Positions 12,005 through 48,166 of a stretch of DNA of 54,868 bases are shown piece after piece. Each line of letters opens with the position of its first letter. Within the stretch, counting starts at the first letter, position 1. Source of the DNA: a virus. Its lineage: Duplodnaviria; Caudoviricetes. The stretch lies in the IMG/VR virus record IMGVR_UViG_3300003324_000142, positions 1 through 54,868 of that record; one strand, 5' to 3'. The notes under the pieces were generated by a model. The model did not search any database and was not told the DNA's origin. It was given only the letters and a program-made list of their open reading frames with translations. Both the position numbers and the translations under genes were made by a program.

Positions 12005-12402
12005 GGTAATAACTCGTCAGGCACATTGAAAAATCCCTGGCCGCCTCTGAACGGTATAGGTTCAATTGCTTCGATATTCCCAAGCAGCCAACCATAACGA
12101 CCGTGATCGTACACGCCGTAGCGACGTTCTGTTTCTGTGACCAAGAAACTGAGAATTTCTGTCGGCTGAACGTCTATCAATTCACATCTTGCAATAACTG
12201 CACCAAACGGCAACGCTTGACCGATTTGCGGATCATATTGAAGGCAATCGGTGGTGAATCGCTTCTGATCTGTTGCCCAACGCTTAGCCGCATGGATCAA
12301 CAACGGTCCGCGATATTTCGTCGACCAACCCCGCGTTTCGATTTTTTTCAGACCTAATGGGATCGCCGATGCCCACGGCTGCCACAGCGACACCGCTCTC
12401 AT
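12001..12402 (-). CDS. ASCH domain protein
   Basis: SLWQPWA...GLKKIETRGWSTKYRGPLLIHA...G.QGFF. Confidence 0.88.
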   Translation of the reverse strand: MRAVSLWQPWASAIPLGLKKIETRGWSTKYRGPLLIHAAKRWATDQKRFTTDCLQYDPQIGQALPFGAVIARCELIDVQPTEILSFLVTETERRYGVYDHGRYGWLLGNIEAIEPIPFRGGQGFFNVPDELLP

Positions 12403-19748: not shown

Positions 19749-20706
19749 CCTACTCACCACGACGATGCTGACGGCTTATGCTGCTGGCGGCGACAACGGG
19801 ACGGAAATCACGACGCCGGTTGGCCGGATCGTGTGGGGTCACCCGTGCAAGCCTCGGGACAAGACGGACCAGCAGAACAACAAGATTCTGGATGCGAACG
19901 GTCAGCCGGTCCAGGAGGTTGCTTTCGGTCTGGCGATCCCCACGGCCGAATTTCAGCAGTACGTCTGGTCAGCGATGGCGGCTGAGATCGCGAAGGGCTA
20001 TCCCAACGGCGCACCCGGCAATTTCAGCTACAAGATGACGCAGGAACACGAGATCGATCGCAACGGCAAGCCATACGGCGAGCGCGAGGGATACGCCGGC
20101 TGTGTGGTCCTCGCCATCGCCACCACGCTCCAAGCGCCCAACGTGTTCAAGCTGGAAAACGGCGGCTATCGGCAGATGCAGCCCAACGAGATCAAGACGG
20201 GCGATTTCGTTCGCTGCGGCATCAATTTCAAGGTCAACGTCCCGACCAACCGCAGCCACACGCCGTCGATCTACGTCAACCCGCTGGCGATCGAGTTCAT
20301 CGGCTACGGCACCGAAATCAGCAGCGGGTTCCAGGCCGATCCGAACGCGCTGTTCGGCGGACAGCAGGTGGCCTTGCCGGCCGGCGCGAGCGCAACGCCG
20401 GTTGGTGGCGCCGCCCCGGCACAGATGCCCGGTATGGGCATGGGTGGCGGACAGCCGCAGCAGGGGATGCCGGGAAACGCTCAGGCCGGGATGCCCATTG
20501 CATCGCCGCAGGGTGCCCCGGCCCAACAGATGATGCCTGCCCAATCACCGGCTGCGGCCAGTGCCCCCAATGGGATGCAGCAGATGCCGCCGCCCGCGAC
20601 GGGGTTCGCTGAGGGACAGCCCCAGCAGGGGATGCCGGGAAACGCGCCGCAGCCCGCAATGCAGCCGCAGCCCGGACCCGGTGGAATGCCGCAGATGCCG
20701 CGGTAA
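19741..20706 (+). CDS. ssDNA-binding protein (DUF2815/gp2.5-like) with a Q/P/G/M-rich tail
   Basis: TPVGRIVWG, EGYAGC, IKTGDFVR, SIYVNP...EF.GYG. Lies between the exonuclease and the polymerase. Confidence 0.75.
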   Translation: MRNLLTTTMLTAYAAGGDNGTEITTPVGRIVWGHPCKPRDKTDQQNNKILDANGQPVQEVAFGLAIPTAEFQQYVWSAMAAEIAKGYPNGAPGNFSYKMTQEHEIDRNGKPYGEREGYAGCVVLAIATTLQAPNVFKLENGGYRQMQPNEIKTGDFVRCGINFKVNVPTNRSHTPSIYVNPLAIEFIGYGTEISSGFQADPNALFGGQQVALPAGASATPVGGAAPAQMPGMGMGGGQPQQGMPGNAQAGMPIASPQGAPAQQMMPAQSPAAASAPNGMQQMPPPATGFAEGQPQQGMPGNAPQPAMQPQPGPGGMPQMPR

Positions 20707-20870: not shown

Positions 20871-21449
20871 ATGCTACCTTTGCGTCGATGCAATACATGT
20901 GACTCTGACAAACCACTGGATGAATTTTACAACAATAAGTCGCGCAAAGACGGCAAATACACCAAATGTAAGGACTGTCAGAAGTCTTATCAAAGAAATC
21001 GTTACAAGCACGACCCCGAAGTAAGAAAGCAACACGCCGATTACGACAGGAAGCGCAGAACGCACGATCCGAAATTTGTCGAAGCGGTTCGACGGCGGTC
21101 TAGAAAATTTTACGGCTCTGTCAAAGGTCGCGCAAAAACCTTGTTTTCGGCTGCGTGCAGGCGTGATCCCGACGCAACAATAACTCTTGAATTTGTAGAA
21201 AATCGAATCGCAGAAGGGTTTTGCGAAGTTACAAAAATACCGTTCGATTTATCCAACGGCTATCAAATTCTCACAGGGTCTAAAAATAACCCTTTCGCGC
21301 CTTCACTCGATCGAAAGAACCCAAAAGTTGGTTACACTCCCGAAAACGTAAGAGTTGTGATTTGGCAATTCAACTGGATGAAAGGCGAACTGTCCGATAT
21401 TGAATTGAAATATTTTTGCCAAACGATTCTGAAAGCCCTAGAGCAATGA
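20871..21449 (+). CDS. His-Me finger (HNH-like) homing endonuclease
   Basis: CNTC...KPLDEFY...CKDC, CEVTKIPF...PSLDRKNP.VGYT.ENV...N.MK. Low GC. Confidence 0.75.
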   Translation: MLPLRRCNTCDSDKPLDEFYNNKSRKDGKYTKCKDCQKSYQRNRYKHDPEVRKQHADYDRKRRTHDPKFVEAVRRRSRKFYGSVKGRAKTLFSAACRRDPDATITLEFVENRIAEGFCEVTKIPFDLSNGYQILTGSKNNPFAPSLDRKNPKVGYTPENVRVVIWQFNWMKGELSDIELKYFCQTILKALEQ

Positions 21450-22930
21450 TCACTCTCGACAATGCGCAAGTATACGATGTCGAATGTTTCAGCAATCTGT
21501 TCATGTTGACCGCGATGTCGCTGAACCGGGACGATTGCAACGTTTGGGAGATCAGCGACTATCGGAACGACGCAGCCCAATTGATTCAGTGGTTCAATTG
21601 GTTGCAGCAGACGCAGACGCCGATGATCAGCTACAACGGCGAGCATTACGACTACCCGATGATACACATGCTGATGATGTCGGCGGGCCGAGCGTCCAAT
21701 GCGGACCTCTACGCCAAGTCGCAGGCGATCATCGGCAGCAACGATCGGTTCGGACACACGATCTGGCCGCGGGATCGCTTCGCGCCGCAGATCGACTTGC
21801 TCAAATTGCACCATTTCGACAACCAGGCCAAGCGCCAGTCGTTGAAAGGATTGCAGTTCAACATGCGCTCGCCGTCCGTGGTGGACGCGCCGATCCCGTT
21901 CGATCAACCGGTCCGAGCGGATCAGGTCGACACGGTGTTGCACTACAACAAGCACGACGTTCTCGAAACGAAGCGATTCGCCGGCTATAGCGCCGACGCG
22001 ATCAAATTCCGGCTCGGGCTCGTCGATCAGTTCGGTGTCGAATGCCTCTCGTGGAACGACACCAAGATCGGCGAGAAGATGCTCGAACAGCGTCTTGGCG
22101 ATGACGTGTGCTACGATCGGTCCAGCGGGCGCAAAGAGCGCCGTCAGACCATCCGGGACCGCATTGCCCTGCGCGACATCATCTTCCCGTACGTCCAGTT
22201 CCAGCACCCTGAATTTCAGCGCATCCACCAGTTCATGCTCAACCAGGTGTTGACGCCTGACGACATTGAAACCAGCGCCGTCGCTGATTTTGGGGGTGGT
22301 CGCAAAGCACAAGTGAGCGCCATCCGGACCAAGGGCGTGTTCACCGACCTCCACGCTGATGTCGGCGGACTCCGCTTCCATTTCGGCACTGGTGGCGTCC
22401 ATGCGTCCGTCGAGGCGCAACGGTTCATCGCGACTGACGAATGGTTGATCCGCGACATCGACGTGGCGGCGCTGTATCCGAGCCTCGCGATCGTCAACCG
22501 GCTCGCCCCGGCTCACCTTGGCGAAGCGTTCGTCGCCGAATACGCGAAAATCCCGGCCGAGCGGAAGCAGCACGCCAAGGGCACCTACATGAACGCCGCG
22601 CTCAAGCTGGCGGCGAACGGCGCGTGGGGAAAGTCCAACAGCATGTACAGCGTGTTCTACGATCCGCAGTACGCCATGACGATTCCGATTAACGGACAGT
22701 TACTTATCTGCATGTTGGTCGAATGGCTGTTGACGGTGCCGACTATATCACTCGTGCAATGCAATACGGATGGCGTCACGTATCGCATTCATCGCGACTA
22801 TCTGGCAGCGGCTCAAGCCATCGAGCGGCAATGGCAGGATTATACAGGGTTGACCCTTGAGGACGCATTCTACAGTCGGATGTGGATTCGGGATGTGAAC
22901 AATTATTTAGCGGAGTATATTGATGACTGA
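21446..22930 (+). CDS. family B DNA polymerase, N-terminal polypeptide (exonuclease + palm)
   Basis: YDVEC, YNGEHYD, DIDVAALYPS, KLAANGAWGK, QCNTDG. Ends RDVNNYLAEYIDD. Confidence 0.88.
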   Translation: MITLDNAQVYDVECFSNLFMLTAMSLNRDDCNVWEISDYRNDAAQLIQWFNWLQQTQTPMISYNGEHYDYPMIHMLMMSAGRASNADLYAKSQAIIGSNDRFGHTIWPRDRFAPQIDLLKLHHFDNQAKRQSLKGLQFNMRSPSVVDAPIPFDQPVRADQVDTVLHYNKHDVLETKRFAGYSADAIKFRLGLVDQFGVECLSWNDTKIGEKMLEQRLGDDVCYDRSSGRKERRQTIRDRIALRDIIFPYVQFQHPEFQRIHQFMLNQVLTPDDIETSAVADFGGGRKAQVSAIRTKGVFTDLHADVGGLRFHFGTGGVHASVEAQRFIATDEWLIRDIDVAALYPSLAIVNRLAPAHLGEAFVAEYAKIPAERKQHAKGTYMNAALKLAANGAWGKSNSMYSVFYDPQYAMTIPINGQLLICMLVEWLLTVPTISLVQCNTDGVTYRIHRDYLAAAQAIERQWQDYTGLTLEDAFYSRMWIRDVNNYLAEYIDD

Positions 22931-23495
22931 ATGTATGGTTTGCGGTGCTGAAATCGTCAGCAAAATACGAAAAGTCACCTGCTCGCAAGAGTGTTACGGA
23001 ATCTATGATAAAACACGAAAAGCTGCGTATAGAAACGCAAATAAAGAGAAATTGAGGTTATATAATAAACAATACAGAAAGAAAAATTTAGAAAAATGCA
23101 GAGCGAGTAGTTTACGCAGCCGTGATAAGTTTATGGCATCAATCGAACATCGTCCTGACAAAAGAATCGATCTTTTGATGCGGAGTTGTCGTCTAAGCGC
23201 TAAAAGGAAGAATATCGCATTTGAATTATCTTCCGCTGTCATAATGACGTTGATAAAATCTCAAAATGAGCAATGTGCGCTGACCGGGATCAGTTTTGAT
23301 TGGGGTTTTGGCGGCGAACATCGCGCCAATCCTTTTGCCCCATCGATAGATCGAAAAGATAGCAGAAAAGGTTACACATACGACAACATTCAGATCGTCT
23401 GTTATATTGTAAACTTGGGTAAAAATGAATACCCGATTGAATTATATGATCGGGTGTGTCGCGCCAGAGTAGGAATTTTAAATGGGGAAACTTAA
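22920..23495 (+). CDS. His-Me finger (HNH-like) homing endonuclease inserted in the polymerase gene
   Basis: CMVC...TCSQEC, CALTGISF...PSIDRKDS.KGYT.DNI...N.GK. Very low GC. Confidence 0.8.
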   Translation: MMTECMVCGAEIVSKIRKVTCSQECYGIYDKTRKAAYRNANKEKLRLYNKQYRKKNLEKCRASSLRSRDKFMASIEHRPDKRIDLLMRSCRLSAKRKNIAFELSSAVIMTLIKSQNEQCALTGISFDWGFGGEHRANPFAPSIDRKDSRKGYTYDNIQIVCYIVNLGKNEYPIELYDRVCRARVGILNGET

Positions 23496-24057
23496 ACAGA
23501 AAGGTGTATATCATTTTCCTGACCCGCTCGATTACGCCGCGAGTATCAGCACCATGTCACCACCGGGCTGGCATCGGGATTGGTCGGCGACTGTAGTTCA
23601 AGAATCTGCTGTCGCCGCTATGGTTCACAATGTGCCGCCTGAGACGTTTGTCCACGCTTGCACCAACCCATACGCATTCTGTCTCCGCGCCAAAGTGGAC
23701 CGGTCGAGCCGCCTGTATCTCGGGGATCGCGAGATGCAACGCACCACCCGCTACTATGTCGCTCGTCAAGGGTCCGAACTGATCAAAATCAGTCCACCGG
23801 CTGCTGGCGGTGTGATCGGACAATGGAAGCGAGCGAACGGTGTGACCAAGGCCGAATACGACCGCGTGATGACCGAAACCGGTGGTGCATGGGACGAGCG
23901 GGTCTGCACGAAGAACCAATCCAAATACACCGAACGACGTACCGCATTTCAGGCAGGTTATGCCATCGCCGAATGCAACGACGCTGCGTCGTTCCGGTTT
24001 GACAACCTGAATTACGATTGGTACATCGGTGAAGCACGAAAACTGATCATAGGATGA
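23482..24057 (+). CDS. family B DNA polymerase, C-terminal polypeptide (thumb region)
   Basis: Begins MGKLKQKGVY, the expected continuation after NNY. Ends LNYDWYIGEARKL. Own AGGA RBS. Confidence 0.8.
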   Translation: MGKLKQKGVYHFPDPLDYAASISTMSPPGWHRDWSATVVQESAVAAMVHNVPPETFVHACTNPYAFCLRAKVDRSSRLYLGDREMQRTTRYYVARQGSELIKISPPAAGGVIGQWKRANGVTKAEYDRVMTETGGAWDERVCTKNQSKYTERRTAFQAGYAIAECNDAASFRFDNLNYDWYIGEARKLIIG

Positions 24058-36943: not shown

Positions 36944-37474
36944 TTACGGCGTCGCGTCGACCGGATCGACCGTGATCTGCTTCTGCTGCAATCCGAGCGT
37001 GAACACTTCCAGGTCGAAGTCCTCGTTGCGCCCGTTCGGCTGCGTCGGACCGCTGATCAGGCCGCGGTTGTAGCGGATAGTCGGACTCGAACCAGTGAGA
37101 TCGTTCGGCGCGTCGTTGCCTTCGATCTTGAAGGCGTAGTTCAGGTTCGTGTCGGCGATCGACCGCATGATGACCTGACCGGGATCGTCCGGATCGCGCG
37201 CAACCTCGACGGTCGGCGAACCGGCATCGGTCATGCCCTTGGCCTTCTGGACGACATCATCGTCCCACGTATCGTAGGTGAGGATATTGGTTGACGAACC
37301 CGTTTCGCCGTGACTGCCGACGCCGGCCACCAAAACCCAGGTCAGCGCTTCGAAGCCGCTCTGATCCAACTTGGTCGGCTGCGGGGTGGCACACACGTAG
37401 AATTTCTTCTGCGCGTTGGTATTGAAGAAACCTGCGGCGAGCGAGGCGCCGAGGATGGCCTTGATCTGTTTCAT
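36944..37474 (-). CDS. major tail (tube) protein
   Basis: AGGGG RBS at ATG 37474. GETG...KAKG..DAG...D.GQ motifs. Confidence 0.85.
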   Translation of the reverse strand: MKQIKAILGASLAAGFFNTNAQKKFYVCATPQPTKLDQSGFEALTWVLVAGVGSHGETGSSTNILTYDTWDDDVVQKAKGMTDAGSPTVEVARDPDDPGQVIMRSIADTNLNYAFKIEGNDAPNDLTGSSPTIRYNRGLISGPTQPNGRNEDFDLEVFTLGLQQKQITVDPVDATP

Positions 37475-37532
37475 GTCGGTGCCCCTATATGGATGGACGC
37501 CCACGCCTATCACGGACGCGAGCGGCTTGCAA

Positions 37533-37943
37533 TCACCCTCGATACGACCGGTAGCGAATCGAACAGCCGTAGAGCGTTTCGTCGTCCTGCGGGATCGAAC
37601 CCGTGAAATCGGGCTGCTCGTAGATTTGCACCCCGTCGACCATTCTGCCCTTGGCGAACCACCCTGCGATCGACGCGAGCGTTTCCAGCGGCGCATAGAT
37701 GCCGCCGCCATCCTTGGGCCAATGCAGAACCAGACGAAACAACCCCTGATAATTCTTCTCATCGCCCCAAAAGTCACCCTGACGATTGTTCGGTATCCAG
37801 ACGATTTCGACCCATTTGCCGTCGCTCGGGACATCGAAATTAACATCGATATACGCGACTGGCAACGTAGGCACTGACGACGCCGCTACAGCAGCCGTTA
37901 CACCTTGTTGCAGCGATGCGATGATTAGCGTTTCATCTTCCAT
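37533..37943 (-). CDS. tail terminator protein (DUF4128-like)
   Basis: Synteny. G.FRL..HWPKDGG. Confidence 0.7.
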   Translation of the reverse strand: MEDETLIIASLQQGVTAAVAASSVPTLPVAYIDVNFDVPSDGKWVEIVWIPNNRQGDFWGDEKNYQGLFRLVLHWPKDGGGIYAPLETLASIAGWFAKGRMVDGVQIYEQPDFTGSIPQDDETLYGCSIRYRSYRG

Positions 37944-37944
37944 A

Positions 37945-38394
37945 TCACTTGATCCTTTGACGTAAGGTATCGGTATTGAACGCTACATATCGCGCCCAAT
38001 TTTGCGCGCTGGTTTCCAGAAAACCATCATACAACTCGCGGTAACGAGCGTAATTCGCAGTCCAACCGAAATAGAACGTATCGCCGAATTTCATCTTGAT
38101 CAACGCGGCACTGATCGCTTCGCCGTTGTAGGTGTAACTGTTGATCGCTGCATCAGCGGGTCGCACGCTCGGACCGGATGGAAATCCTTCCAGACTGGCA
38201 CGGGCCGACGCGCGCAGAAAGCCCGTCTTGATACGCATCCGACCGCCTTTCGCAGTCGGCTGTTGCGCATTGTCGACCACATCCTGAATGCTCGACTGCA
38301 TTACAGCAAGCATTCGCTCTTTGCTCTTGCGCACCCAATCTTCAACCGTAGCCGATGGGCTGGTATATGCGCGCTGACGACCGTAATAAGTCAT
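37945..38394 (-). CDS. HK97 gp10-like neck/tail completion protein
   Basis: GGRMRIKTGFLRAS, GWTANYARYRE. Confidence 0.75.
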   Translation of the reverse strand: MTYYGRQRAYTSPSATVEDWVRKSKERMLAVMQSSIQDVVDNAQQPTAKGGRMRIKTGFLRASARASLEGFPSGPSVRPADAAINSYTYNGEAISAALIKMKFGDTFYFGWTANYARYRELYDGFLETSAQNWARYVAFNTDTLRQRIK

Positions 38395-39419
38395 CACGAC
38401 ACTCCGGCGAAAAAGTCGATCTTATAACGGACGTGACAGCGGCACCCGACGATCTCAGCAGCATCAGCACCAAGCGATCCATCGCCGGGGTGCATCATCT
38501 TTGACCCCTCAGGCGTCGTGAACGCCTCGTTGAGCCCCACAGTTTGCCCATCCATTTCACGATGGGTCTGCCGGACGCGATTGTCGCCCGCCGTCTCCCA
38601 CACCTTCTCGGCCGCGCTGTCGGGCAGCGCGCTTTGCGCCAACGCCTGCTGCGTCGCCTCGAACTCAGACCGGTTGAGCGCAGCGAGTGCTTCGGTCCGT
38701 CCGATCCCTTCGCCGCGGAACCGCAGGGCGCTCGACCGATACTGGTTGACCAACTTGTCCACCGTTTCGAGCGGCAGGGGTTTGCCGGCGTCGATCGCGG
38801 CCCGCACTGTCTTATCGAAGCGCTTGTCACGCAGACCCAATTCGAAATACGATTCGTCCAGTGACAACAGCTTCGCACGGGCCGATGCGGCCCATCCTTC
38901 CTCACGCGAGCCAAGGCCCACGACGCCACCCTCACGCTGTCTGGTTTGCGGGTTGAACCGCCCTACGATGTCGAGCGCCACATTGTTCGGATTCCGGCCC
39001 TCCTGCATCCCACGGACCATCGTGTCGCGCACCGTCTGGCGAATGTCGTCCTCAATCCCGGTGACGAGTGCTGCGGATCGCTCGGACAGCCATTTCTCGG
39101 TGCGCTCATCACGAATGTCGAACCGCAGCGGTGATTTCATGCCGCTCAGCCCGGTCGTATATTTGGGAAAGGTCGCCATCATCATAAGCCCGCCCTGCTG
39201 AAACGCATTGGTCAGCGCAAGGGTCATCGGGTTGAATGCCGGTGGCGTATATCCGAGCGCGTCGAACGCCGCCTGCACGTCGTTACGTTTAATCGCGTCG
39301 ACCACTTGCGCGAGGATCGCATTGTCCACCACATCCTGCACGGCATCCAAAAACGCGCGCCGGATCGCCGGCGCCATCTGTGCCAACAGTGCTTCGAATT
39401 GTTCGATCAGCGTCGACAT
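38394..39419 (-). CDS. head morphogenesis protein (Mu gpF/SPP1 gp7-like)
   Basis: IGRTE, KVWETAGDNRVRQTH, HPGD...GCRC. Confidence 0.85.
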   Translation of the reverse strand: MSTLIEQFEALLAQMAPAIRRAFLDAVQDVVDNAILAQVVDAIKRNDVQAAFDALGYTPPAFNPMTLALTNAFQQGGLMMMATFPKYTTGLSGMKSPLRFDIRDERTEKWLSERSAALVTGIEDDIRQTVRDTMVRGMQEGRNPNNVALDIVGRFNPQTRQREGGVVGLGSREEGWAASARAKLLSLDESYFELGLRDKRFDKTVRAAIDAGKPLPLETVDKLVNQYRSSALRFRGEGIGRTEALAALNRSEFEATQQALAQSALPDSAAEKVWETAGDNRVRQTHREMDGQTVGLNEAFTTPEGSKMMHPGDGSLGADAAEIVGCRCHVRYKIDFFAGVS

Positions 39420-39763
39420 ATCACCGTCCACACGACAGGGGTACCGGCTGCGGGTCGCGGCATGATTTCGATAATCTTATGCGACACCCCGTCGATTTTG
39501 ATCGAACCGGTCATGTCGGGTGTCACTCCGTCGTTCGGCATCGTGATTTGCTTGTCGGACTGCACGATGTTGGTGCCGTCGACATATTTGGTCGACACCG
39601 GCCGTGCAACCGCATTGATCGGATGGGGCACCGGGACCGATGGCGTCGGTCGATCCGGGGTGCCACCGGGTTGCTTTTCCAGCGCGACGTACACCACGCT
39701 ACCCTGCTGAAATTCGCCGATCACATCGGACGCGATCTGCCGCATGTCGTCATAAATGCTCAT
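39407..39763 (-). CDS. head-closure/head-tail joining protein
   Basis: Synteny. Begins YDDMRQIASDVIGEF.QG. Confidence 0.7.
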   Translation of the reverse strand: MSIYDDMRQIASDVIGEFQQGSVVYVALEKQPGGTPDRPTPSVPVPHPINAVARPVSTKYVDGTNIVQSDKQITMPNDGVTPDMTGSIKIDGVSHKIIEIMPRPAAGTPVVWTVICRR

Positions 39764-39768
39764 AGGAC

Positions 39769-39797
39769 TTGACCACCCTGAAAGTAACGGTTAAACC
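39769..39797 (+). promoter_or_regulatory. promoter of the antisense-oriented gene
   Basis: TTGACC-N17-TAAACC. Confidence 0.5.
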
Positions 39798-39835
39798 ACA
39801 TCGGTCAATACGACGCAACCCAACGGAGAATCGAA

Positions 39836-40246
39836 ATGAAGCGACTGAACACTCTGACCGCCACGGCGCTCTGCACCGGTTATGCCAGCGCCGATGCACC
39901 CAAGGTGGCGACCGGCACGAAGGCGCCGACGACGACCGATGCGTTCGCAATCACCCCGCCGCCGTCGAACAACCGCGGCAGCACGTCGCCGCTGAGGCCC
40001 AAGTTCGAAGGGCTCGATGTCGGCCAGGCCTTCGGGGTGACCGATCGCACCAAGAAGCAGATTCAGGGCACCGTCAGCAACATGAACCGCAAGTTCAAGT
40101 CGGTTGCGACCGACGCCGAAGGCAACGAAAGCACGCTGCCCGGTCATCGGCATTTCAAGGTGTTCGATGTCGACGCCAACTACGCCAAGACGCTCAAGGG
40201 CACTCCGCTCGACGGCGCCAAGACCCTCGTGTTCCGCGACGCCTGA
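39836..40246 (+). CDS. probable DNA-binding protein oriented against the virion operon
   Basis: GGAG RBS, own promoter and terminator. KFEGLDVGQAF...LVFR resembles small phage winged-helix proteins. Confidence 0.7.
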   Translation: MKRLNTLTATALCTGYASADAPKVATGTKAPTTTDAFAITPPPSNNRGSTSPLRPKFEGLDVGQAFGVTDRTKKQIQGTVSNMNRKFKSVATDAEGNESTLPGHRHFKVFDVDANYAKTLKGTPLDGAKTLVFRDA

Positions 40247-40267
40247 CCCCCCTCTCGGCGACGCGGG

Positions 40268-40300
40268 AAGGGCTGCACTGGCAACGGTGCAGCCCTTTTT
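40268..40300 (+). terminator. intrinsic terminator
   Basis: AAGGGCTGCACTG-GCAA-CGGTGCAGCCCTTTTT. Confidence 0.8.
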
Positions 40301-40791
40301 CATGCCCGCACCACCTGACCCATCATCCCCGACCCGGCGCCATCCCACCACAGCAGCGACGCGATGATCTGACCGACGATCGGCAACTGGACTTGTGCAT
40401 CTGCCGCACCGCCCATGCCGGCATATTGCACGCTGATCGCGCCGTCGATCGAAACGCGGCTGTATTTGTTCGGCGTGAAGTCGGTCGTCAGCGATCCTGG
40501 TGACTGCAACTGCCTCAACGCAACCTCGTAGGTCGCATTCTCGATCTGCACCGGTACGGTCACACTCGATACGGCGTAACCCTCGCGATCAATGACGCCT
40601 TGCCGCGGCCAGTCCCGATCCTGCGTGTGAACCGTCTTGAGCCCCGGCCACCGCATCGCATAGAGCCCGTCGAGCCACTCGGACGCGACCAGACGGGCGG
40701 CGGTGATGTCACCGTCGTCATAGGCGCTGACATCGCGCCCACGGGCCGTGTGGTAGTCGGTGAACCCCTGATTGGTGCCGTAGCTGTCCAT
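40300..40791 (-). CDS. head-tail adaptor (DnaT-like)
   Basis: YGT...YHTARG, ASEWLD, Q.RDWPR, VPVQIENATYE.A. Confidence 0.75.
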   Translation of the reverse strand: MDSYGTNQGFTDYHTARGRDVSAYDDGDITAARLVASEWLDGLYAMRWPGLKTVHTQDRDWPRQGVIDREGYAVSSVTVPVQIENATYEVALRQLQSPGSLTTDFTPNKYSRVSIDGAISVQYAGMGGAADAQVQLPIVGQIIASLLWWDGAGSGMMGQVVRA

Positions 40792-40807
40792 CACGCTTGC
40801 TCCCAAG

Positions 40808-40835
40808 AAAAAGGGCGACCCTTTCGAGCCGCCCC
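40808..40835 (-). terminator. intrinsic terminator after the capsid/accessory genes
   Basis: GGGCGGCTC-GAAA-GGGTCGCCC-TTTTT on the minus strand. Confidence 0.75.
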
Positions 40836-40861
40836 ATCCGTATCATGCCCTGGCGCGCGTG

Positions 40862-41329
40862 TCAGCGCGGCAACGCCTTGATCGCATCGTTCGCGGCCTT
40901 CTGGCTCGAATAGCCGTCCTCGTCGATGCCCTCGACGCCCTTGATCTTCTGACCCATGCCATCGACGATGAAGAATTTCTTCCCCTCGGGCATGACGAGC
41001 CGACTGTTGGGCGACGCGGTAGTCGGAACGACGGCGCCGGTGTTCGGATCGGTCGGCAGCGGCGCGACCGTCTTGCCGCCGCTGTAATCCGGCGTACCGG
41101 GCGTCGCGATGCGGGCTGCATCGTTGATGGTGACGCCGCCACGCGACTTTTCGGCCGTTTCCTTGCCGCTGTACTTGGTGTACTGCCGCTCGGCGCTCGG
41201 CTTCTCCTGGTCGGCGTCGAAATCGGCCTGATTGACCCGGACGGGGCCATCCTTGCCGCTGACCAGGACCACACCGGTCGTTTCGGACATGAAGCCGCTG
41301 ATGACGGCCAAAGCGAGAATCGTTTTCAT
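40862..41329 (-). CDS. virion accessory protein downstream of the capsid gene
   Basis: AGGAGA RBS before ATG 41329. GPVRVNQADFD motif. Confidence 0.7.
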   Translation of the reverse strand: MKTILALAVISGFMSETTGVVLVSGKDGPVRVNQADFDADQEKPSAERQYTKYSGKETAEKSRGGVTINDAARIATPGTPDYSGGKTVAPLPTDPNTGAVVPTTASPNSRLVMPEGKKFFIVDGMGQKIKGVEGIDEDGYSSQKAANDAIKALPR

Positions 41330-41385
41330 CTTGTATCTCCTGCTTGGTGGGGTGCCGGTGAAGCACCCCACCACTGCGACGAATA

Positions 41386-42597
41386 CTACCCCATGAGCAA
41401 ACCGATATGCTCAGGTTTCACCGCCTTCTGGCCCCACGCGAGGCCGATTTCGCCCCGAATCTTGTGGTAGCCCTTGTAGATGGCGATGTCGAACGTGATA
41501 CCCGACCGCGGATCGGTGATCAGCCGGCGATCCGAAGCAGCGTCGCCGCCGTCCGGAATGGCGGGCGGACGAAGCGCGACAGCCATCGCGTTCGCGCTGA
41601 ACCCGACGTTGGCATAGTAGTCGTTCGCCAGCGTGATCGCCGTCGCCTGCGCCGGGATCGCGACGCGAAGGCCCGGTTCGGCGATGGTGAACGTGCCGCC
41701 GTTCGACGTGTCGGCATCACCCGAAACGACCACGTACTTGTTGGTGTCGCCCGCAAAGGTGACGACATCACCCGCCAGGATCGTACCCGTGCCTGCCGCC
41801 GCCAGCGTGATCGTGGTGGTGCCCTTGGCATAGCCGGTCGCATCGGTGGTCGCACCCGCGCCGGTGCCGGCATCGTGCGTCACCGCCTGCGCGGTTTCCT
41901 TGATCGACATCCCGTAGAGGTTGAGCAATTCACCGTCGCGGAGGGTCATCTGCGTACCCGCCTCGTTGACCTTGGTGAGATTGCCGAGCGTGATCAGCTT
42001 GGCCGATGCGGTCGAGTTGAGGATCATCGACCGACCGGTCTTGGGCGCACCGTTGTCGTCGAGAATCTTCTTGATCTGCGCGAGATCGGTCAGATCGCCC
42101 GAGCCGAACGGCGTGGTCCCCGGCGTACCGTAGGCGCGCGATGCGCCGCGGGTCGCTTCGGCCGCGATGTCGGTTTCGATTTCATTGGCGAGCGTCCGGA
42201 ACGCCTCAGCGATCCACATGCCCTGGACGGACAGGAAGCCGACGCCACCAGTGTTGAGCGCGCGCTGTTCCTCGCCGGTGATGCCGAACGAGACGGTGCG
42301 CGCCTTGGTGATCGCCATCTGACCCACCGCGACGGTCCGGTCGGGCGGCTCGGGAATGGTCATCGACGGCACGATGTCCTGCGCCTCGACGCCTTCGGCG
42401 ATCGGATAGCTGACCGACTGACCCTTGGCGGCGCGTTCGACACCCGGCGCACGCATCACGGACGGGATGAAGCCCATCTGCTCGCGCGACACGGTGTCCA
42501 TCGCGGCGAAAAGGTCCGGAAGGATCGCGGTAAGAGTGTTGTCGAAGCCCATGATGGGCGCGGACTGGCTGATCGCCAGCAGCATCATCTTTCGCAT
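41386..42597 (-). CDS. major capsid protein (P22 coat-like family with insertion domain)
   Basis: NTLT..LP......D.VSRE..GFIP.V, I.AGDVVTFAGD, WG.KAVKPEH. Follows the scaffold gene. Confidence 0.88.
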   Translation of the reverse strand: MRKMMLLAISQSAPIMGFDNTLTAILPDLFAAMDTVSREQMGFIPSVMRAPGVERAAKGQSVSYPIAEGVEAQDIVPSMTIPEPPDRTVAVGQMAITKARTVSFGITGEEQRALNTGGVGFLSVQGMWIAEAFRTLANEIETDIAAEATRGASRAYGTPGTTPFGSGDLTDLAQIKKILDDNGAPKTGRSMILNSTASAKLITLGNLTKVNEAGTQMTLRDGELLNLYGMSIKETAQAVTHDAGTGAGATTDATGYAKGTTTITLAAAGTGTILAGDVVTFAGDTNKYVVVSGDADTSNGGTFTIAEPGLRVAIPAQATAITLANDYYANVGFSANAMAVALRPPAIPDGGDAASDRRLITDPRSGITFDIAIYKGYHKIRGEIGLAWGQKAVKPEHIGLLMG

Positions 42598-42635
42598 GGT
42601 CTGCCCCATGTTGAATGTGAAGGTGAAGCGTGCGT

Positions 42636-42683
42636 TCGGTCATCCAACCGACCCGCAACCTGCGCCCCCGATCATCCAACCGG
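42636..42683 (-). promoter_or_regulatory. two GGA-loop hairpins in the capsid 5' UTR
   Basis: CCGGT-TGGATG-ATCGG and TCGGT-TGGATG-ACCGA on the minus strand. Confidence 0.55.
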
Positions 42684-42699
42684 CTGACTGCGATCTTTG

Positions 42700-42728
42700 G
42701 TGTAATGCTGCTGTGGGGTGGGTGTCAA
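42700..42728 (-). promoter_or_regulatory. capsid gene promoter
   Basis: TTGACA at 42728-42723, a -10-like element about 17 nt downstream, and a 13-bp hairpin (42744-42780) upstream. Confidence 0.5.
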
Positions 42729-42807
42729 GTCACCCCCATACAACACGGCCCGGTGGGACGACGAATACCACCGGGCCGTGGAGATCAACCCGTGCGGGCG
42801 ATCTAAC

Positions 42808-43635
42808 TCAATCGACGATCTGGATTTCGCCCTTGCCCATCGACGCCGCAGCTTCGGCCTGCTGCGCAGGGCTCAGGCTGTCGAACTCGGACCGCTTCAT
42901 CACCCGCCCGTTGCCGCGACCGCCACCGCCGCCCTGACCGCCCGTACCGTTCGTGTCGGGCGCCTTGAGGATCATGTCACGATGTGCGTAAGCACCGACG
43001 ATGATTTCCATCGCTTCGTCGGCATCGGCAACCTCGCCGGCCCGCTTCTTCGAATAGATCGGATTGCCGTTGCTGTCCTGCGGCACGATCTTGCCGTCCT
43101 CGACCTTGAAATGGTCGCCGAACGTCTTTTGCGCGATGTCGGCGGGCAGGATCAGTTGCTCGTTGACGAATTTGCTGTCGCGGAACGCCTGGCTGATCAG
43201 CATGTTATCCGCACGCTGTGCCGCGGCGTCGCGCTCAGCAGTGGCGTCGGCGATCTGCTTTTCGTACTGCGTCCGCATCTCGTTGCGGACTTCATCGACC
43301 TTGCCGGCGTCGATCAGTTTCTTGTCGTCGATCTTACCGACTGTATCGAGCGCTTCACGCGCCTTGTCGGGATCGAGCCCGTCGAACTTGGCGAGTTTCG
43401 TTTCCGCCGCCTCGGCCCGCTCGCGATGCCGCTTGCTCTCGTTGGTGAGCCGCGCGACGGTGCCGCTCTCGACCGACATCTCGCCGCCGTCGATCGCCAG
43501 CACCGGGTTGCCCTTGTCGTCGACGACGATGTGGCCGTCGTCATCCTTCTTCCAACCCATGCCGTCGAACCCGGCAACGATCGCCGTTCCGATCGATGCA
43601 AGCAAAAGCCCCTTGATCCGCATCCGCATTCTCAT
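42808..43635 (-). CDS. capsid scaffolding protein (DUF6651-like)
   Basis: DG.IVVD.KGNPV, coiled coil, KKLIDAGKVDEV, FG.HFKVEDGK, Gly-rich end. Start may be 43629. Confidence 0.8.
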   Translation of the reverse strand: MRMRMRIKGLLLASIGTAIVAGFDGMGWKKDDDGHIVVDDKGNPVLAIDGGEMSVESGTVARLTNESKRHRERAEAAETKLAKFDGLDPDKAREALDTVGKIDDKKLIDAGKVDEVRNEMRTQYEKQIADATAERDAAAQRADNMLISQAFRDSKFVNEQLILPADIAQKTFGDHFKVEDGKIVPQDSNGNPIYSKKRAGEVADADEAMEIIVGAYAHRDMILKAPDTNGTGGQGGGGGRGNGRVMKRSEFDSLSPAQQAEAAASMGKGEIQIVD

Positions 43636-43641
43636 TCTCCG

Positions 43642-45141
43642 TCAGGTCGTCATGTCCGGTGGTGTGTTACCACGCGGTAATTCGCCTAGCAAGCGCTCAC
43701 GTTCGCGTTCGGCGGTGAAATCGCTCGAATACACGCCGCGACGCTTCTTTTCTTCCCACAGCGTTTCCTGGCTGATGTCGCCGCGGTCGCGATCGGCGTC
43801 GAGCGACGACAGATCGTCCGCCTCCATCCAGTCGTCGAAATCGACGAACACATGGACCACCGATTCATACGGCACGTTCATCCAGCGTGCGGTCAGGTTG
43901 AGCGCGTTTTCAAGCGCATCCTTGAGCCCATAGGCCCACGCCTTTACGGCGCTCTTGGCCTTGCCGGCTGCGACCGCCGCCGTGATGACGGTGATGTTGC
44001 CCGACTGCGCCGTCAGCGGCTGACGCCCCAATTCGCGAAGCTGCTGGATTGTCGACGCCACGTCATCGGCGAGGAATTTAAGGTTCTCGGATGACGGCTC
44101 GACCCACTCGAACGACCCGACCTTGCCGCTCGCGTCCATGCTGGACCACAGCATCCGCGCCGGTCCGATCTGGACGCGCTTATCGGGTTTGCCGTCCTGT
44201 CCGACCGGTGGATTGATGCCGTTCGCCGCCAGCATGGGATACGCACTCATCGTCTTGATGAACTTGAGCCCGCTTTCCTGCTGATACAATTCGATCTGTA
44301 GGTCGACCGCATCCTTGAGCGCCGGCTTGAACGTCCAGTTGCGCCCGTCACGTCGACCGGTGATGAACGGGATTAGCGGGATCACATCGATGCCAAGCGT
44401 GCCGCCATCGATCCGTGCGTACTGCGTCTTGCCGTCCGGTCCGGTCGTTTCGGTTTTCTCGTACAGCGTCCACGTCACCCCTGCGTCGGTGCGTTTGTAT
44501 TCGCGCACCCGATCCGGACTGCCCGGTTCGAAAATGCGGATGAACGTCAGAACCTCACTGCCGCCGATCATCTTGGATCGCACGTCGAGTACGTTGCGCC
44601 CGATCACATGCGACCAGTACGGGCGTACCTTCTCGCGCTTGGCGTCGGCGATGCTGCGGACGGCGGGATTTTTCTTATCGAAATCGACCATGATCCAGTC
44701 GATCGCGCTGTTGATGCCGTTGAAAAACGTCGTCGCGGCGAAACTGGTCAGGTTGTTGCCGCTACCATCCACGTCCCACGAAAACTCGGTGATCTGCTCG
44801 GGCGCGTCGATTACCTGCACCGGGTATTCGAACGGCTTGCTGGTCAGCCCTTCCACGATGTCGTTATAGACGTTCGTGACCTTGGTGCATTGGAGTCGAT
44901 ACTGATATTCGCGATCGGTTTCGTCGGGGAATTTCGGCAGATACGTCGTACCGGCCAACCGGAGCGCGTCGATACCGCCGATCACCGTGTCCGTCTTGTC
45001 CCAATAGGGCAGCATTGCCGCACTGTCGCGCGACCGCTTGGTGATGGTGTCCACGCTAAACATTTCGACCACCGGATCGAGTGGTCGACTGGCATAGCCG
45101 GTGATGGCGGTGGTGTGCAGCAAGGTCGTGAGATGGGTCAT
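43642..45141 (-). CDS. portal protein (DUF4055-like)
   Basis: YLPKFPDE....Y..RL, DVDGSGNNL, RPYW. Follows terL. Confidence 0.85.
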   Translation of the reverse strand: MTHLTTLLHTTAITGYASRPLDPVVEMFSVDTITKRSRDSAAMLPYWDKTDTVIGGIDALRLAGTTYLPKFPDETDREYQYRLQCTKVTNVYNDIVEGLTSKPFEYPVQVIDAPEQITEFSWDVDGSGNNLTSFAATTFFNGINSAIDWIMVDFDKKNPAVRSIADAKREKVRPYWSHVIGRNVLDVRSKMIGGSEVLTFIRIFEPGSPDRVREYKRTDAGVTWTLYEKTETTGPDGKTQYARIDGGTLGIDVIPLIPFITGRRDGRNWTFKPALKDAVDLQIELYQQESGLKFIKTMSAYPMLAANGINPPVGQDGKPDKRVQIGPARMLWSSMDASGKVGSFEWVEPSSENLKFLADDVASTIQQLRELGRQPLTAQSGNITVITAAVAAGKAKSAVKAWAYGLKDALENALNLTARWMNVPYESVVHVFVDFDDWMEADDLSSLDADRDRGDISQETLWEEKKRRGVYSSDFTAERERERLLGELPRGNTPPDMTT

Positions 45142-46862
45142 TATCCGCCGTATCCTCCGATGCTCAACGTCGCGCCGCCTGCCGGCACCGGGAACATCGC
45201 TTGCACAAGCGCGTCCGCCAAATTCGGACTTTTAGCACCGTTCGGCGATTTGTCCACGAGCATCTTGAGGGTCGCCGCGCTCGCCTTACGGGTCGGTTGG
45301 GCCAACTCGGTCATCAACTTGTCGCGCACCACCACCGGAATGCTGCTGTCGATACTGATCAACTCGTCCGGTGGATAATACAGACCCTCATTGACGCACC
45401 GCCACGTCTTGTAGAACCGGGTCCGCACAGACCACCATGCCTGCGCCTTGAAATTATGGAAAAAGTCACGATTGGTCGGGCTCTCGCGGTCGTCCGGGAT
45501 GACATGCGCGTAAGGCTCGATCACCGCGGCGCCCGCGTTCCACGGCACCATTTCGAACTCATCGCGCCCGATGCTGCCCGCTTCCAGCAGCCGGTTGTAT
45601 TCCGCCTTGACCGCCGCACCGACGCCCACGCAATCGTACTGGACGGCGATACCGCGCCGGCCACCCTCGCGCAGCCCTGCCAGCATCCGGCGCGTCGTCT
45701 CGCCTGGGTCGCGCTCGCCCCATTCCTCGGCAGCGCGAATGATGACCCCTTGCCGCTGGACGAGTGCGTTGCGGTCGCCGCCCTCGTCGGCCACGTCGAG
45801 CCCTGCACCCCATTGACCGGGCTCGGCTGCGGCCAGTCCGGGGATGTGCAGGTGGGCGTCAAGCGCTGCGGCGATCCATTCCGCGCTGATGACGGTGTTC
45901 TCCACCGCGGCGCTGTAGTTGCGATCGACCTCCTGCGCGAAGATGTGCTGTAGCCCCTCGCGTTCCGCCTTGGCCTTGCGCGCGTCGTACCATTCCTGTG
46001 TCTTTTCCGGGTGGTCGCGCCAATCGAAAATGAACACCCGTGTCACGCCGCGCGGGATAGATGCACCCGGCTCCCACACCACCCCTTCCATTCGTCGCCG
46101 ATGAAAAATGTTGCCGGTGCCGTTGACCGACGACATGTCGATCCGGACATCGGTGTTGTCGCCAAGCGATGCCTCGATCGTCTCGGGTCGTTCGATGTGG
46201 GCGGCTTCGTCGACGAAATACCGGCTCTTACGACCACCACGTCCGATATTAGCACCCGCCTCACCGGTAACGCTCGCACCATTGGACGTGTTGATCACCT
46301 TGAGAAACGCATCCTTGGTGACGGGTCGAAATTCACGCGGCAGTCGGCTTATGAGCAACCGTATTTTCTCGAAAATGCTGTCCGTGTCGCCGAGTTTGTC
46401 GACCAGCGCTTCTTTACGTGATCCCCACCCTGTCGCGTCGTTCTCAAGGAAAGTCAGCGCCCACACGCTGTATGCTGCACCGATCCATGTAGCGCCGATG
46501 TCGCGGCATTTTTCGACCAGACCGCTTTCACCCTCGGCCCGCAGCGCTTCAAGATATTCGATGAATAACCGCTGCTTATCGAACAGGACGAACGGCATCC
46601 ATTTTTGCGTCTGCTTGCGCGGGTTGTACGTCTCGCACCAATGCGTGATGAACTCGACCGGATGTGTCGTGTAATATGCACGCGCTTCGGCGAGCAATGA
46701 CGGATCGGACCGTATCCGTTCGAGCATTTGAACCCGCCACGCATAGACCCCCTTGTAATCAGGAGGCCATTGGTCGTGCGTGAGCGGTCGCGGACGCCAC
46801 GGTGCGATCGTCGCGGCTGGTGCGCGTGGGACGAATAGGTCGGGGCTAGACGGCAGGGTCAC
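45141..46862 (-). CDS. terL: terminase large subunit
   Basis: EKCRDIGATW, GRGGR, FVDEAAH, GLDVADEGGD, KSPNLADAL. GTGA overlap at 46862. Confidence 0.92.
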   Translation of the reverse strand: MTLPSSPDLFVPRAPAATIAPWRPRPLTHDQWPPDYKGVYAWRVQMLERIRSDPSLLAEARAYYTTHPVEFITHWCETYNPRKQTQKWMPFVLFDKQRLFIEYLEALRAEGESGLVEKCRDIGATWIGAAYSVWALTFLENDATGWGSRKEALVDKLGDTDSIFEKIRLLISRLPREFRPVTKDAFLKVINTSNGASVTGEAGANIGRGGRKSRYFVDEAAHIERPETIEASLGDNTDVRIDMSSVNGTGNIFHRRRMEGVVWEPGASIPRGVTRVFIFDWRDHPEKTQEWYDARKAKAEREGLQHIFAQEVDRNYSAAVENTVISAEWIAAALDAHLHIPGLAAAEPGQWGAGLDVADEGGDRNALVQRQGVIIRAAEEWGERDPGETTRRMLAGLREGGRRGIAVQYDCVGVGAAVKAEYNRLLEAGSIGRDEFEMVPWNAGAAVIEPYAHVIPDDRESPTNRDFFHNFKAQAWWSVRTRFYKTWRCVNEGLYYPPDELISIDSSIPVVVRDKLMTELAQPTRKASAATLKMLVDKSPNGAKSPNLADALVQAMFPVPAGGATLSIGGYGG

Positions 46863-47278
46863 AGCGACATGCAGTCGACGCCACATCCGCTGCAAATGTC
46901 GCGACGTGCGGCGATGCGTACCGCTTGCTCCGCTGTCGCACCTGCGTCAAGCGCGCCGTATGCGACAGCGCTGCCCGATCCGGCTGCTGCTGGTGCACCA
47001 CATTCGTACCAACGACCGAATTTATCGTATGATCGAACCGACCCATCCGGTCGCAACACCAGAAATTCGCACCCGTCATCGCGCGGATCGAACGGGTCGG
47101 TCGTACCGCTGTCGTACCATCGGACGAAGGCTTCAAGCAAGTACGGTGTTCCGGTTACGGCGGCGATCGAACCATCTGTCGCACGTGCGATTTTACACAT
47201 CTCACCATGCAGCAATCCGTTACCAGTGACAGCCCGGTCCGCTGCCATGCTCTTGCCATCCGTCGCTATCGTCGTCAC
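46859..47278 (-). CDS. Ntn-hydrolase (HslV/proteasome beta-like) peptidase
   Basis: Begins (M)TTIA.DG..MAAD, CKI, AAGSGS..AYGAL, A..RDICSG. GGGGA RBS. Confidence 0.8.
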   Translation of the reverse strand: MTTIATDGKSMAADRAVTGNGLLHGEMCKIARATDGSIAAVTGTPYLLEAFVRWYDSGTTDPFDPRDDGCEFLVLRPDGSVRSYDKFGRWYECGAPAAAGSGSAVAYGALDAGATAEQAVRIAARRDICSGCGVDCMSL

Positions 47279-47962: not shown

Positions 47963-48166
47963 TCACGCCATGACGTAACGCTTGCCTGCGCCTTTGCAAT
48001 TGACGCACGGCAACGTGCCGGGTGGCGGGTTCCACGGTGCATATTTGGACCAGTCGCCGTCACCACCGCATTCCCAACAGTCGGTGACCCCTACGCCTCC
48101 ACCGATGTCCTGAACCGGTTGGTTCAATTGTGCGTAGCCGCGCAGGGTGGTGACGTAGAGGGTCAT
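47963..48166 (-). CDS. small Zn-finger protein (DnaJ-like CxxCxGxG)
   Basis: CWECGGDG...CVNCKGAG. ATGA coupling. Confidence 0.65.
   Translation of the reverse strand: MTLYVTTLRGYAQLNQPVQDIGGGVGVTDCWECGGDGDWSKYAPWNPPPGTLPCVNCKGAGKRYVMA

Follow-up and report, generated by a model that had tools for sequence, protein, structure and literature searches.

The virion proteins of the phage whose complete 54.9-kb genome is the stretch analysed here (54,868 nucleotides, the entire virus record IMGVR_UViG_3300003324_000142; hereafter the window) begin with a common short leader that is set on unrelated proteins and ends at an aromatic residue. Six proteins encoded within a single gene span carry it: the portal protein, the scaffold, the major capsid protein, a head accessory protein, the tail tube protein and, on the opposite strand, a DUF7303-like protein. 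In these six the leader is about 11–21 amino acids (aa) long, free of acidic residues and closed by Gly plus Phe or Tyr. It is encoded and translated in frame and conserved among relatives, it comes and goes as one piece, and its boundary is the aromatic residue. This real and conserved feature appears to be undescribed, since a literature search of the full text of papers (main texts) returned no description of it. At roughly even odds (a probability of about 0.5), the leader is a pre-sequence that acts before or during assembly and is then cut off after the aromatic residue, probably by a host enzyme.

All six N-termini read in the sequence as the original prediction had given them (Table 1), and its statement that their starts are supported holds for five with clear Shine–Dalgarno (SD) motifs (GGAG, AGGAG, AGGGG or GGAGG, 7–12 nucleotides (nt) 5' of the leader ATG). 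GGAGG lies 12 nt upstream of the portal ATG, which also overlaps the terL stop codon, while GGAG, AGGAG, GGAGA and AGGGG each lie 7 nt upstream of the scaffold, accessory protein, DUF7303 and tail tube ATGs, respectively; at the capsid ATG the SD support is weak, with GGGG alone. The in-frame ATGs just after the leaders have no SD motif, save a weak GGTGG before Met27 of the portal protein. GC content by codon position is 0.48/0.49/0.79 in the leaders (pooled, 106 codons) versus 0.61/0.45/0.81 in the gene bodies, so that the third-position bias of coding DNA (GC3) is present in the leaders. The residues common to the leaders are encoded by codons that differ from one leader to another, and therefore the likeness is, as had been proposed, at the protein level, a DNA repeat as its source being ruled out. 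Family profiles begin behind the leader: the PHROG portal profile starts at residue 31, the PHROG 784 alignment begins at residue 29 of the longest scaffold open reading frame (ORF), and position 2 of the PHROG 283 profile pairs with the Asp that directly follows GF in the capsid protein. The 155-aa accessory protein has no family match in Pfam, PHROG or Atlas, the DUF7303 assignment comes from a weak Pfam match and an Atlas structure with a TM-score of 0.50, and a scan of nine proteins with NCBIfam for a known N-terminal signal model gave nothing relevant.

Table 1. Leaders and associated features in the window (positions are those of the window; "then" gives the residues that follow the leader)
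Feature	Position	Strand	Length and start	Gene, basis or context
Portal leader MTHLTTLLHTTAITGY, then AS	45094..45141	-	16 aa, ATG 45141	gene 43642-45141
Scaffold (DUF6651) leader MRMRIKGLLLASIGTAIVAGF, then DG	43567..43629	-	21 aa, ATG 43629	gene 42808-43629
Major capsid leader MRKMMLLAISQSAPIMGF, then DNTL	42544..42597	-	18 aa, ATG 42597	gene 41386-42597
Head accessory protein leader MKTILALAVISGF, then MSET	41291..41329	-	13 aa, ATG 41329	gene 40862-41329
DUF7303 protein leader MKRLNTLTATALCTGY, then AS	39836..39883	+	16 aa, ATG 39836	gene 39836-40246
Tail tube leader MKQIKAILGASLAAGF, then FN	37427..37474	-	16 aa, ATG 37474	gene 36944-37474
Leader of Gp2.5-like single-stranded DNA-binding protein (SSB) MRNLLTTTMLTAY, then AA	19741..19779	+	13 aa, ATG 19741	PHROG 7011
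Possible leader MTLYVTTLRGY on 67-aa protein	48134..48166	-	11 aa	gene 47963-48166; read by eye
HslV-family (proteasome-beta-like) peptidase gene	46859-47278	-		between terS and terL; phrog_1040, E 1.4e-28
Head, neck and tail-tube gene run	36.9-48.0 kb	-		Pfam and PHROG scans

Within the window alone the enrichment of such N-termini is modest. An automatic rule (9–26 aa, no Asp or Glu, an end of a small residue plus Phe or Tyr, and a hydrophobic window; scored at the best-SD start of each gene) caught 9/64 genes as against 16/383 internal start-like codons (Fisher p 0.0045), an enrichment of about 4-fold; two to three of these nine genes resemble ordinary membrane proteins, and the capsid was missed. 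A stricter version of the rule caught 14/274 start candidates versus 7/605 internal ones, one of those seven being the true tube start. It is the comparative evidence that strongly settles the reality of the leader.

The nearest named relative of the window is Rhizobium phage vB_RglS_P106B (genus Rigallicvirus), which is about 67% identical in nucleotide sequence over parts of the head module and gives tblastn matches for 25 of the 64 called window genes. The leader module is found on the same protein families in P106B, in phage RHph_X2_24 and in about 20 IMG/VR contigs (L-numbered loci below). The annotated starts of P106B include the portal protein MFRKLHLLSSTAF/ANNN, gp03 MKQVINRHLAILLATAF/NNAGW, the capsid protein MRKNLILPSLAAPFILSGAY/ASANTL, gp17 MKTALNLITATAF/ANGA and the tube protein MKSYLAILLASAF/ANSN, and the same five proteins carry the leader in RHph_X2_24, the portal protein of which starts MRKHLLASAAY/NN. 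In P106B stop codons stand just 5' of the leader Met, no later Met is available in the capsid protein, gp03 or the tube protein, and the GC content of 48% makes long chance extensions of ORFs unlikely.

In each of the six families, members with and without the leader are both found among close relatives. Portal proteins carry it in P106B, X2_24, L003, L006, L007, L013 and L037 and are without it in L008, L011, L017 and L020; DUF7303 homologues carry it in P106B (gp17), X2_24, L003, L007 and L014 and are without it in L013, L019 and L021. A scaffold leader with a small plus Phe, Tyr or His end stands 2–9 residues ahead of the conserved W-K-x-D in 16 relatives, and other scaffolds start directly, for example MPWKKKDD in L035 and MKLKLDD in L028. 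By comparison, every relative examined is leaderless on MuF, Ad1, Hc1, the tail terminator, TerL and TerS.

Where the leader is missing, orthologues begin at its junction in the capsid and tube alignments, which bears out the proposal of a lineage-specific extension ending at the aromatic residue. The capsid comparison comprises 81 rows (P106B and 80 IMG/VR loci, P106B being represented among the latter a second time), whose N-terminus classes were counted by eye because automatic classing misfiled several cases of long extensions and leaders. A short leader ending in a small plus an aromatic residue stands directly or two residues before (A/D)N(T/S)L in 23 rows, and 48 rows begin directly with M(A/S)NTL, in agreement with the statement in the original prediction that homologous capsids start near M-A-N-T-L where the leader ends. 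The rest are one leader without a final aromatic residue (L037), seven extensions of 37–60 aa with a signal-like start and two rows cut by a contig end. In the tube alignment (A1) the leader is present in 10 of 12 sequences, every one ending in a single column of Phe, Tyr or His, and in the two leaderless tubes (L007 and L021) the initiator Met falls in that very column; this column checks the junction independently of the rule by which the small plus aromatic pair was picked elsewhere. In the accessory protein family all five relatives (L003, L004, L005, L014 and L019) have a leader ending in Phe, Tyr or His, and in four of them (L004, L005, L014 and L019) the aromatic residue or His is followed by M-(S/N)-(D/E), just as a Met had been noticed directly after GF in the window protein. 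The likely P106B counterpart, gp15, which was matched by position and by eye and has no tblastn match, is without a leader.

The leader codons are also constrained. In the last 12 leader codons of three close pairs (L008/L012, L010/L020 and L021/L024), 27 synonymous and 16 non-synonymous changes give a ratio of non-synonymous to synonymous divergence (pN/pS) of 0.20, the bodies giving 0.22; judged from these substitutions, the leader is under purifying selection. The ratio across all 22 pairs was discarded because these were saturated (pS about 0.6) and partly out of register. In-frame ATGs at or near the junction in five window genes, PHROG profiles that start after the leader and an in-window enrichment of just about 4-fold would all suit an artefact, namely ORFs that in a GC-rich genome happen to run on upstream of true starts at the downstream ATGs (the Met in IMGF of the capsid protein, DGM of the scaffold, Met27 of the portal protein and GFM of the accessory protein). 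Such an artefact is largely refuted by SD motifs that stand before the leader ATGs and not the inner ones, by the coding type of GC3, by the stops right before the leader Met in P106B at 48% GC with no inner Met in three of its proteins, and by a pN/pS of 0.20, and with the leader present in about 20 independent contigs it is very improbable.

The make-up of the leader was examined on 49 examples from the capsid, scaffold and tube proteins of 21 loci, the junction being placed at the nearest pair of a small and an aromatic residue, so that the last two leader positions (P2 and P1) are partly set by construction. These leaders are 10–32 aa long (median 20), nine of them being shorter than 15 aa, and 46/49 have Lys or Arg within the first six residues, with acidic residues at 5 of 923 positions. 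P2 is Ala in 32, Gly in 7, Val in 7, Ser in 2 and Pro in 1; the residue after the junction (P1') is Ala in 25, Asp in 12 and others in 12. The maximum of the Kyte–Doolittle hydropathy in a 7-residue window is at least 2.0 in 37/49 and below 1.5 in 7/49. Some portal, scaffold and DUF7303 leaders are just 6–11 aa long with charged residues, such as MARIERVAF, MRISRVGF and MSSIAF in L007 and MLNISKLPRVF in L006. The portal, SSB and DUF7303 leaders of the window are Thr-rich and weakly hydrophobic, with maximum hydropathy windows of 1.6–1.8 for the latter two.

The mechanism that we propose at the odds given above may be set out as follows. The leader is a genuine, portable N-terminal pre-sequence consisting of Met and a basic residue, an acid-free core rich in hydrophobic residues or Thr, and a small residue (Ala, Gly or Val) plus Phe or Tyr, rarely His. 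Phages of the Rigallicvirus group set it right before the presumed mature N-terminus of abundant, self-assembling proteins, that is, the capsid, scaffold, portal, tail tube, head accessory and DUF7303 proteins and, in this phage, also SSB. Made together with the protein, it might act before or during assembly, for example by having the subunits held by a common chaperone or partner, whereupon an endopeptidase with a chymotrypsin-like preference at P1, probably a host enzyme, would cut directly after the aromatic residue to leave an N-terminus identical to that of the leaderless orthologues. We infer that the leader is cut at all, and likewise where, by which enzyme and to what end: given the sharp boundary, the leaderless Met at the aromatic column, the free gain and loss and the lack of a predicted role in the fold, removal after the aromatic residue is the simplest account. 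As for the fold, AlphaFold2 (AF2) run on the tube alignment gives residues 1–16 a predicted local distance difference test score below 50 and no secondary structure, the fold starting at a strand of residues 24–28; the model does not build the tube leader into the domain, a low score being no proof of disorder.

The closest known analogue is the L27-like leader of the staphylococcal phage 80alpha. There, the host cysteine protease Prp cuts at F|A to take 13–14 residues off the capsid protein (CP) and the scaffolding protein (SP), and phage 80 has the same motif on its CP, as does phi13 on its major tail protein (PMC5744158). Both systems place a short leader on non-homologous, large, self-assembling virion proteins; the staphylococcal cut lies between Phe and a small residue and is made without a phage prohead protease (PMC5744158). 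The staphylococcal motif, MLxx(D/N)LQ(F/L)F|A(S/H)KK (PMC9405229), differs from the basic, hydrophobic/Thr and (A/G/V)(F/Y) pattern found here, with no LQ(F/L)F core in the window or its relatives, so that an aromatic residue with a small one behind it is all that the two have in common. The set of carriers is wider here, taking in portal, DUF7303, accessory protein and SSB, and whereas cleavage is proven for 80alpha, it is deduced for the present leaders.

Several observations weigh against the proposed mechanism. No protease candidate survives. Prp (PF04327) has no match in the window at E<=1, and none in four named genomes of the Hyphomicrobiales type or in a sample of 101 genomes from the order to which one of them, a Phyllobacterium genome, belongs, a search in which the positive controls Bacillus subtilis, Thermotoga maritima and Lactococcus lactis all match. 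Ribosomal protein L27 starts M|AHKKAGGSS, without the long extension, in 4/4 Hyphomicrobiales-type genomes, which serve as proxies for the host of the window. None of the three hallmarks of the staphylococcal system sought in the window, its relatives and these proxy genomes was found (no Prp, no long L27, a different motif); Prp with a long L27 is accordingly rejected as the leader system here and the original prediction of a system different from that of 80alpha is upheld. No prohead protease family is the best Pfam or PHROG match of any head or neck gene from terS to the tube. No solved structure was found among homologues of the capsid, tube and portal proteins (sequence search, E<=0.01). 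The capsid leader of L037 ends without the aromatic residue (SFPTAG/ANNL), and His replaces it in L005, L006 and L020. The hydrophobicity of 37/49 leaders equals that of Sec signal peptides, so that a targeting role fits equally well. In 80alpha, CP cleavage is dispensable and an uncleavable SP is viable (PMC5744158); by the same token, the leader here may serve some end other than being cut off. Finally, the ends of capsid and tube leaders do not co-vary within genomes (5432/20000 label permutations reach the observed identity), and the permutations, here and for the family pairs below, ignore shared ancestry.

One candidate enzyme is encoded by the window itself. The HslV-like N-terminal nucleophile peptidase gene (Table 1), which also has weak matches to Pfam Proteasome and NCBIfam proteasome-beta, starts with a GTG that gives Met-Thr-Thr and would expose Thr1; a chymotryptic, proteasome-like cut after the aromatic residue could be imagined for it, and only this phage has Gly at P2 in 6/7 leaders. 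By tblastn, however, no homologue is present in the complete P106B genome, in the fetched 25-kb structural region of X2_24 (L132) or in ten leader-bearing loci that include both terS and terL (L003, L005, L008, L011, L012, L013, L016, L017, L020 and L021), and the only homologues found, in other phages and prophages, adjoin ten capsid genes that lack the short leader (L032, L036, L040, L051, L058, L084, L085, L101, L110 and L113). HslV-type enzymes, moreover, degrade processively rather than process at specific sites. This co-occurrence rules out the window peptidase as the general leader peptidase, and a part for it in this phage is scarcely to be expected. With neither Prp nor a prohead protease found and a general role of the HslV-like enzyme rejected, a host factor becomes the default assumption.

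Two further explanations were weighed. The leader might stay in place as an uncleaved tag, either a binding site for a chaperone or holdase of the DnaK, trigger factor or SecB type or a weak membrane-association peptide, by which polymerising subunits are kept soluble or localised until assembly. Chaperones of these types prefer basic and hydrophobic stretches without acidic residues, and the leaders comply, with Lys or Arg at the start in 46/49, 5/923 acidic residues and a hydrophobic core; moreover, the carriers are abundant polymerising proteins, and AF2 leaves the tube leader disordered. For 80alpha the scaffold leader itself is required and its cleavage is not, and a common chaperone is discussed by the authors (PMC5744158). 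On the other hand, close relatives manage without the leader on the same protein (tube of L007 and L021; portal of L008, L011, L017 and L020), which is easier to reconcile with identical mature proteins; a boundary so sharply set by a small plus an aromatic residue, right where the mature protein begins, is what a cleavage site typically looks like; and a lattice would presumably have to fit a hydrophobic extension of 10–30 aa on the N-arm of the capsid protein or the N-terminus of the tube protein. A permanent tag is therefore unlikely, albeit worth serious consideration.

The other explanation is a true signal peptide of the Sec or signal recognition particle pathway, which would direct all or some of the protein molecules to the translocon or inner membrane. 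Signal peptidase I would then cut either immediately ahead of the aromatic residue or, at A-x-A, immediately behind it. Many of the leaders show a likeness: a basic n-region, a hydrophobic core, small residues near the end and no acidic residues, with leaders in many relatives that end in A-(F/Y)-A or look like textbook signal peptides, as in the tubes of L013 (MKKSIFVAALMGSVFALPVVF/ANTN) and L020 (MKKLLLATSFLANLAAF/ANSN). The hydropathy reaches the threshold of 2.0 in the 37 leaders mentioned, Ala at P1' in 25/49 gives A/G/V-(F/Y)-A, a cut before the aromatic residue would put Ala, Gly or Ser at -1 in 41/49, and a separate group of capsids has a long signal-like start plus linker (seven rows, e.g., L039 and L053; prophages L089 and L098). 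Against this, capsid, portal, scaffold, tube and SSB proteins work in the cytoplasm, as assembly or DNA-binding proteins. P1' is Asp, Phe, Asn, Glu, His, Leu or Pro in 24/49, so that a cut behind P1' would violate the A-x-A rule in roughly half of the set, nine of 49 are shorter than 15 aa, and the portal, scaffold and DUF7303 leaders of 6–11 aa are too short for an h-region. The weak hydrophobicity of the Thr-rich portal, SSB and DUF7303 leaders of the window also speaks against it, and a conserved aromatic residue is not a known feature of Sec signal peptides. Secretory targeting is accordingly improbable.

Two side observations touch on signal peptides. The separate phrog_283-type capsids have N-terminal extensions of 37–60 aa made of a strongly signal-peptide-like or transmembrane-like start and a linker that often ends in (V/I/A)LG right before ANTL; they occur in IMG/VR loci L039, L041, L042, L047, L053, L059 and L077 and in prophages or contigs of metagenome-assembled genomes (L089, L093, L098, L105 and L126), the adjoining scaffold genes being without a leader. 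These may be membrane-anchored capsid precursors. P106B gp66 (43291-43563 of the P106B record, L002) is a secreted-looking protein with an internal-start signal peptide ending in STSAAFA/GD, which closely resembles the (T/S)AF/A end of the P106B virion leaders.

Leaders with other known fates fit less well. In prohead-protease systems maturation strips a common N-terminal piece from several head proteins, as with the capsid-targeting sequence of T4 and the substrates of its protease gp21, and an N-terminal piece common to several proteins is likewise seen here. The T4 cut site, L/I-x-E, is unrelated to the present motif, however, no prohead protease was detected in the head module of the window, and the tail tube, the DUF7303 protein from the opposite strand and SSB are not prohead contents. 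A type IV prepilin leader was rejected, as the hydrophobic part lies upstream of GF, no Glu stands at +5, and relatives use Ala or Val in place of Gly.

Returning to the pre-sequence with subsequent cleavage, the ends of the leaders tend to be characteristic of each genome. Gly occupies P2 in 6/7 leaders of the window phage, P106B and X2_24 have (T/S/A)-A-F, and L004, L006 and L013 have P-V-(V)-F. In comparisons of positions P5 to P2, the identity seen between scaffold and tube (n=10 genomes) was reached in 59 of 20000 label permutations and that between scaffold and capsid (16 genomes) in 309 of 20000, which provides a lead that leader ends are more alike within than between genomes. It is tempting to regard all this as an undescribed pre-sequence system of siphophages of the Rigallicvirus group in alphaproteobacteria, where one common partner, a host endopeptidase or chaperone, reads (A/G/V)-(F/Y), and where the leader sits on every major polymerising virion protein, can jump to new genes such as that of SSB and co-evolves in concert in each genome; this wider picture is tentative, with the balance tilted somewhat against it. 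Were it true, the 80alpha/Prp principle would have arisen a second time, independently, in hosts without Prp, and rhizobia could be expected to possess a hitherto unknown enzyme for cytoplasmic processing.

Processing of the leader, if it takes place, would reveal a new protease or recognition factor, either of the phages or of their rhizobial hosts, and might provide a general control over the time at which the subunits of capsid, scaffold, portal and tube are able to assemble, a point that is open even for 80alpha. For annotation, the mature N-termini of these virion proteins would be assigned wrongly, and capsid and tail proteins would be taken for secreted ones by signal-peptide predictors. 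Two cultured and harmless pairs of phage and host, P106B on Rhizobium gallicum and RHph_X2_24 on Sinorhizobium americanum, make the question directly testable.

The proposal that the leader covers replication proteins as well as virion proteins stands for the latter; for the former it is weak. The SSB start has GGAGA 8 nt upstream of its ATG, and an alternative ATG at 19765 is without an SD motif. Nine relatives (P106B, X2_24 and seven IMG/VR loci) are all without the leader and start 2–7 residues before the conserved GRIVWG; a scan of viral contigs with alignment A2 had given nine loci, and one with the single protein none. This rules out the SSB leader as a feature of the clade, and it is either a gain private to this phage or a coincidence. 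The 67-aa protein with a possible leader (Table 1) has an ATG that overlaps the upstream stop codon, a weak SD motif and two CxxCxGxG motifs, which by eye we take to be the DnaJ-type zinc-finger pattern; library scans gave no family match for it, and no relatives were found. The N-terminus of the tail-tip protein (31564) fits the pattern by eye, likewise with no relatives found. MTYYGRQRAY (38394), which had been listed as a weak case, is rejected as a leader because the closest relative, L014, shows it to be the normal, conserved beginning of Neck1 family proteins.

The leader-bearing genes lie in a run of head, neck and tail-tube genes (Table 1). Its minus-strand genes encode TerS, the HslV-family peptidase, TerL, the portal protein, the DUF6651 scaffold, a P22-type coat protein (phrog_283), the 155-aa accessory protein, the adaptor Ad1, the head closure protein Hc1, a MuF-like protein, Neck1, the tail terminator and the tail tube protein, and the DUF7303-like gene is placed among them on the plus strand.

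Elsewhere in the genome, two genes seem to carry insertions. The 855-aa helicase (12399-14966, minus strand) has matches to a Hint/intein-splicing domain at about residues 142–444, and the P106B helicase is 563 aa long, with a tblastn match covering only residues 442–854 of the window helicase; an intein insertion is likely. The DNA polymerase, a single gene (gp48) in P106B, is split in the window into two ORFs on the plus strand (21416-22930 and 23482-24057). The low-GC stretch between them contains an ORF of 191 aa (22920-23495) with a match to a treble-clef zinc finger and may be a homing-endonuclease insertion.

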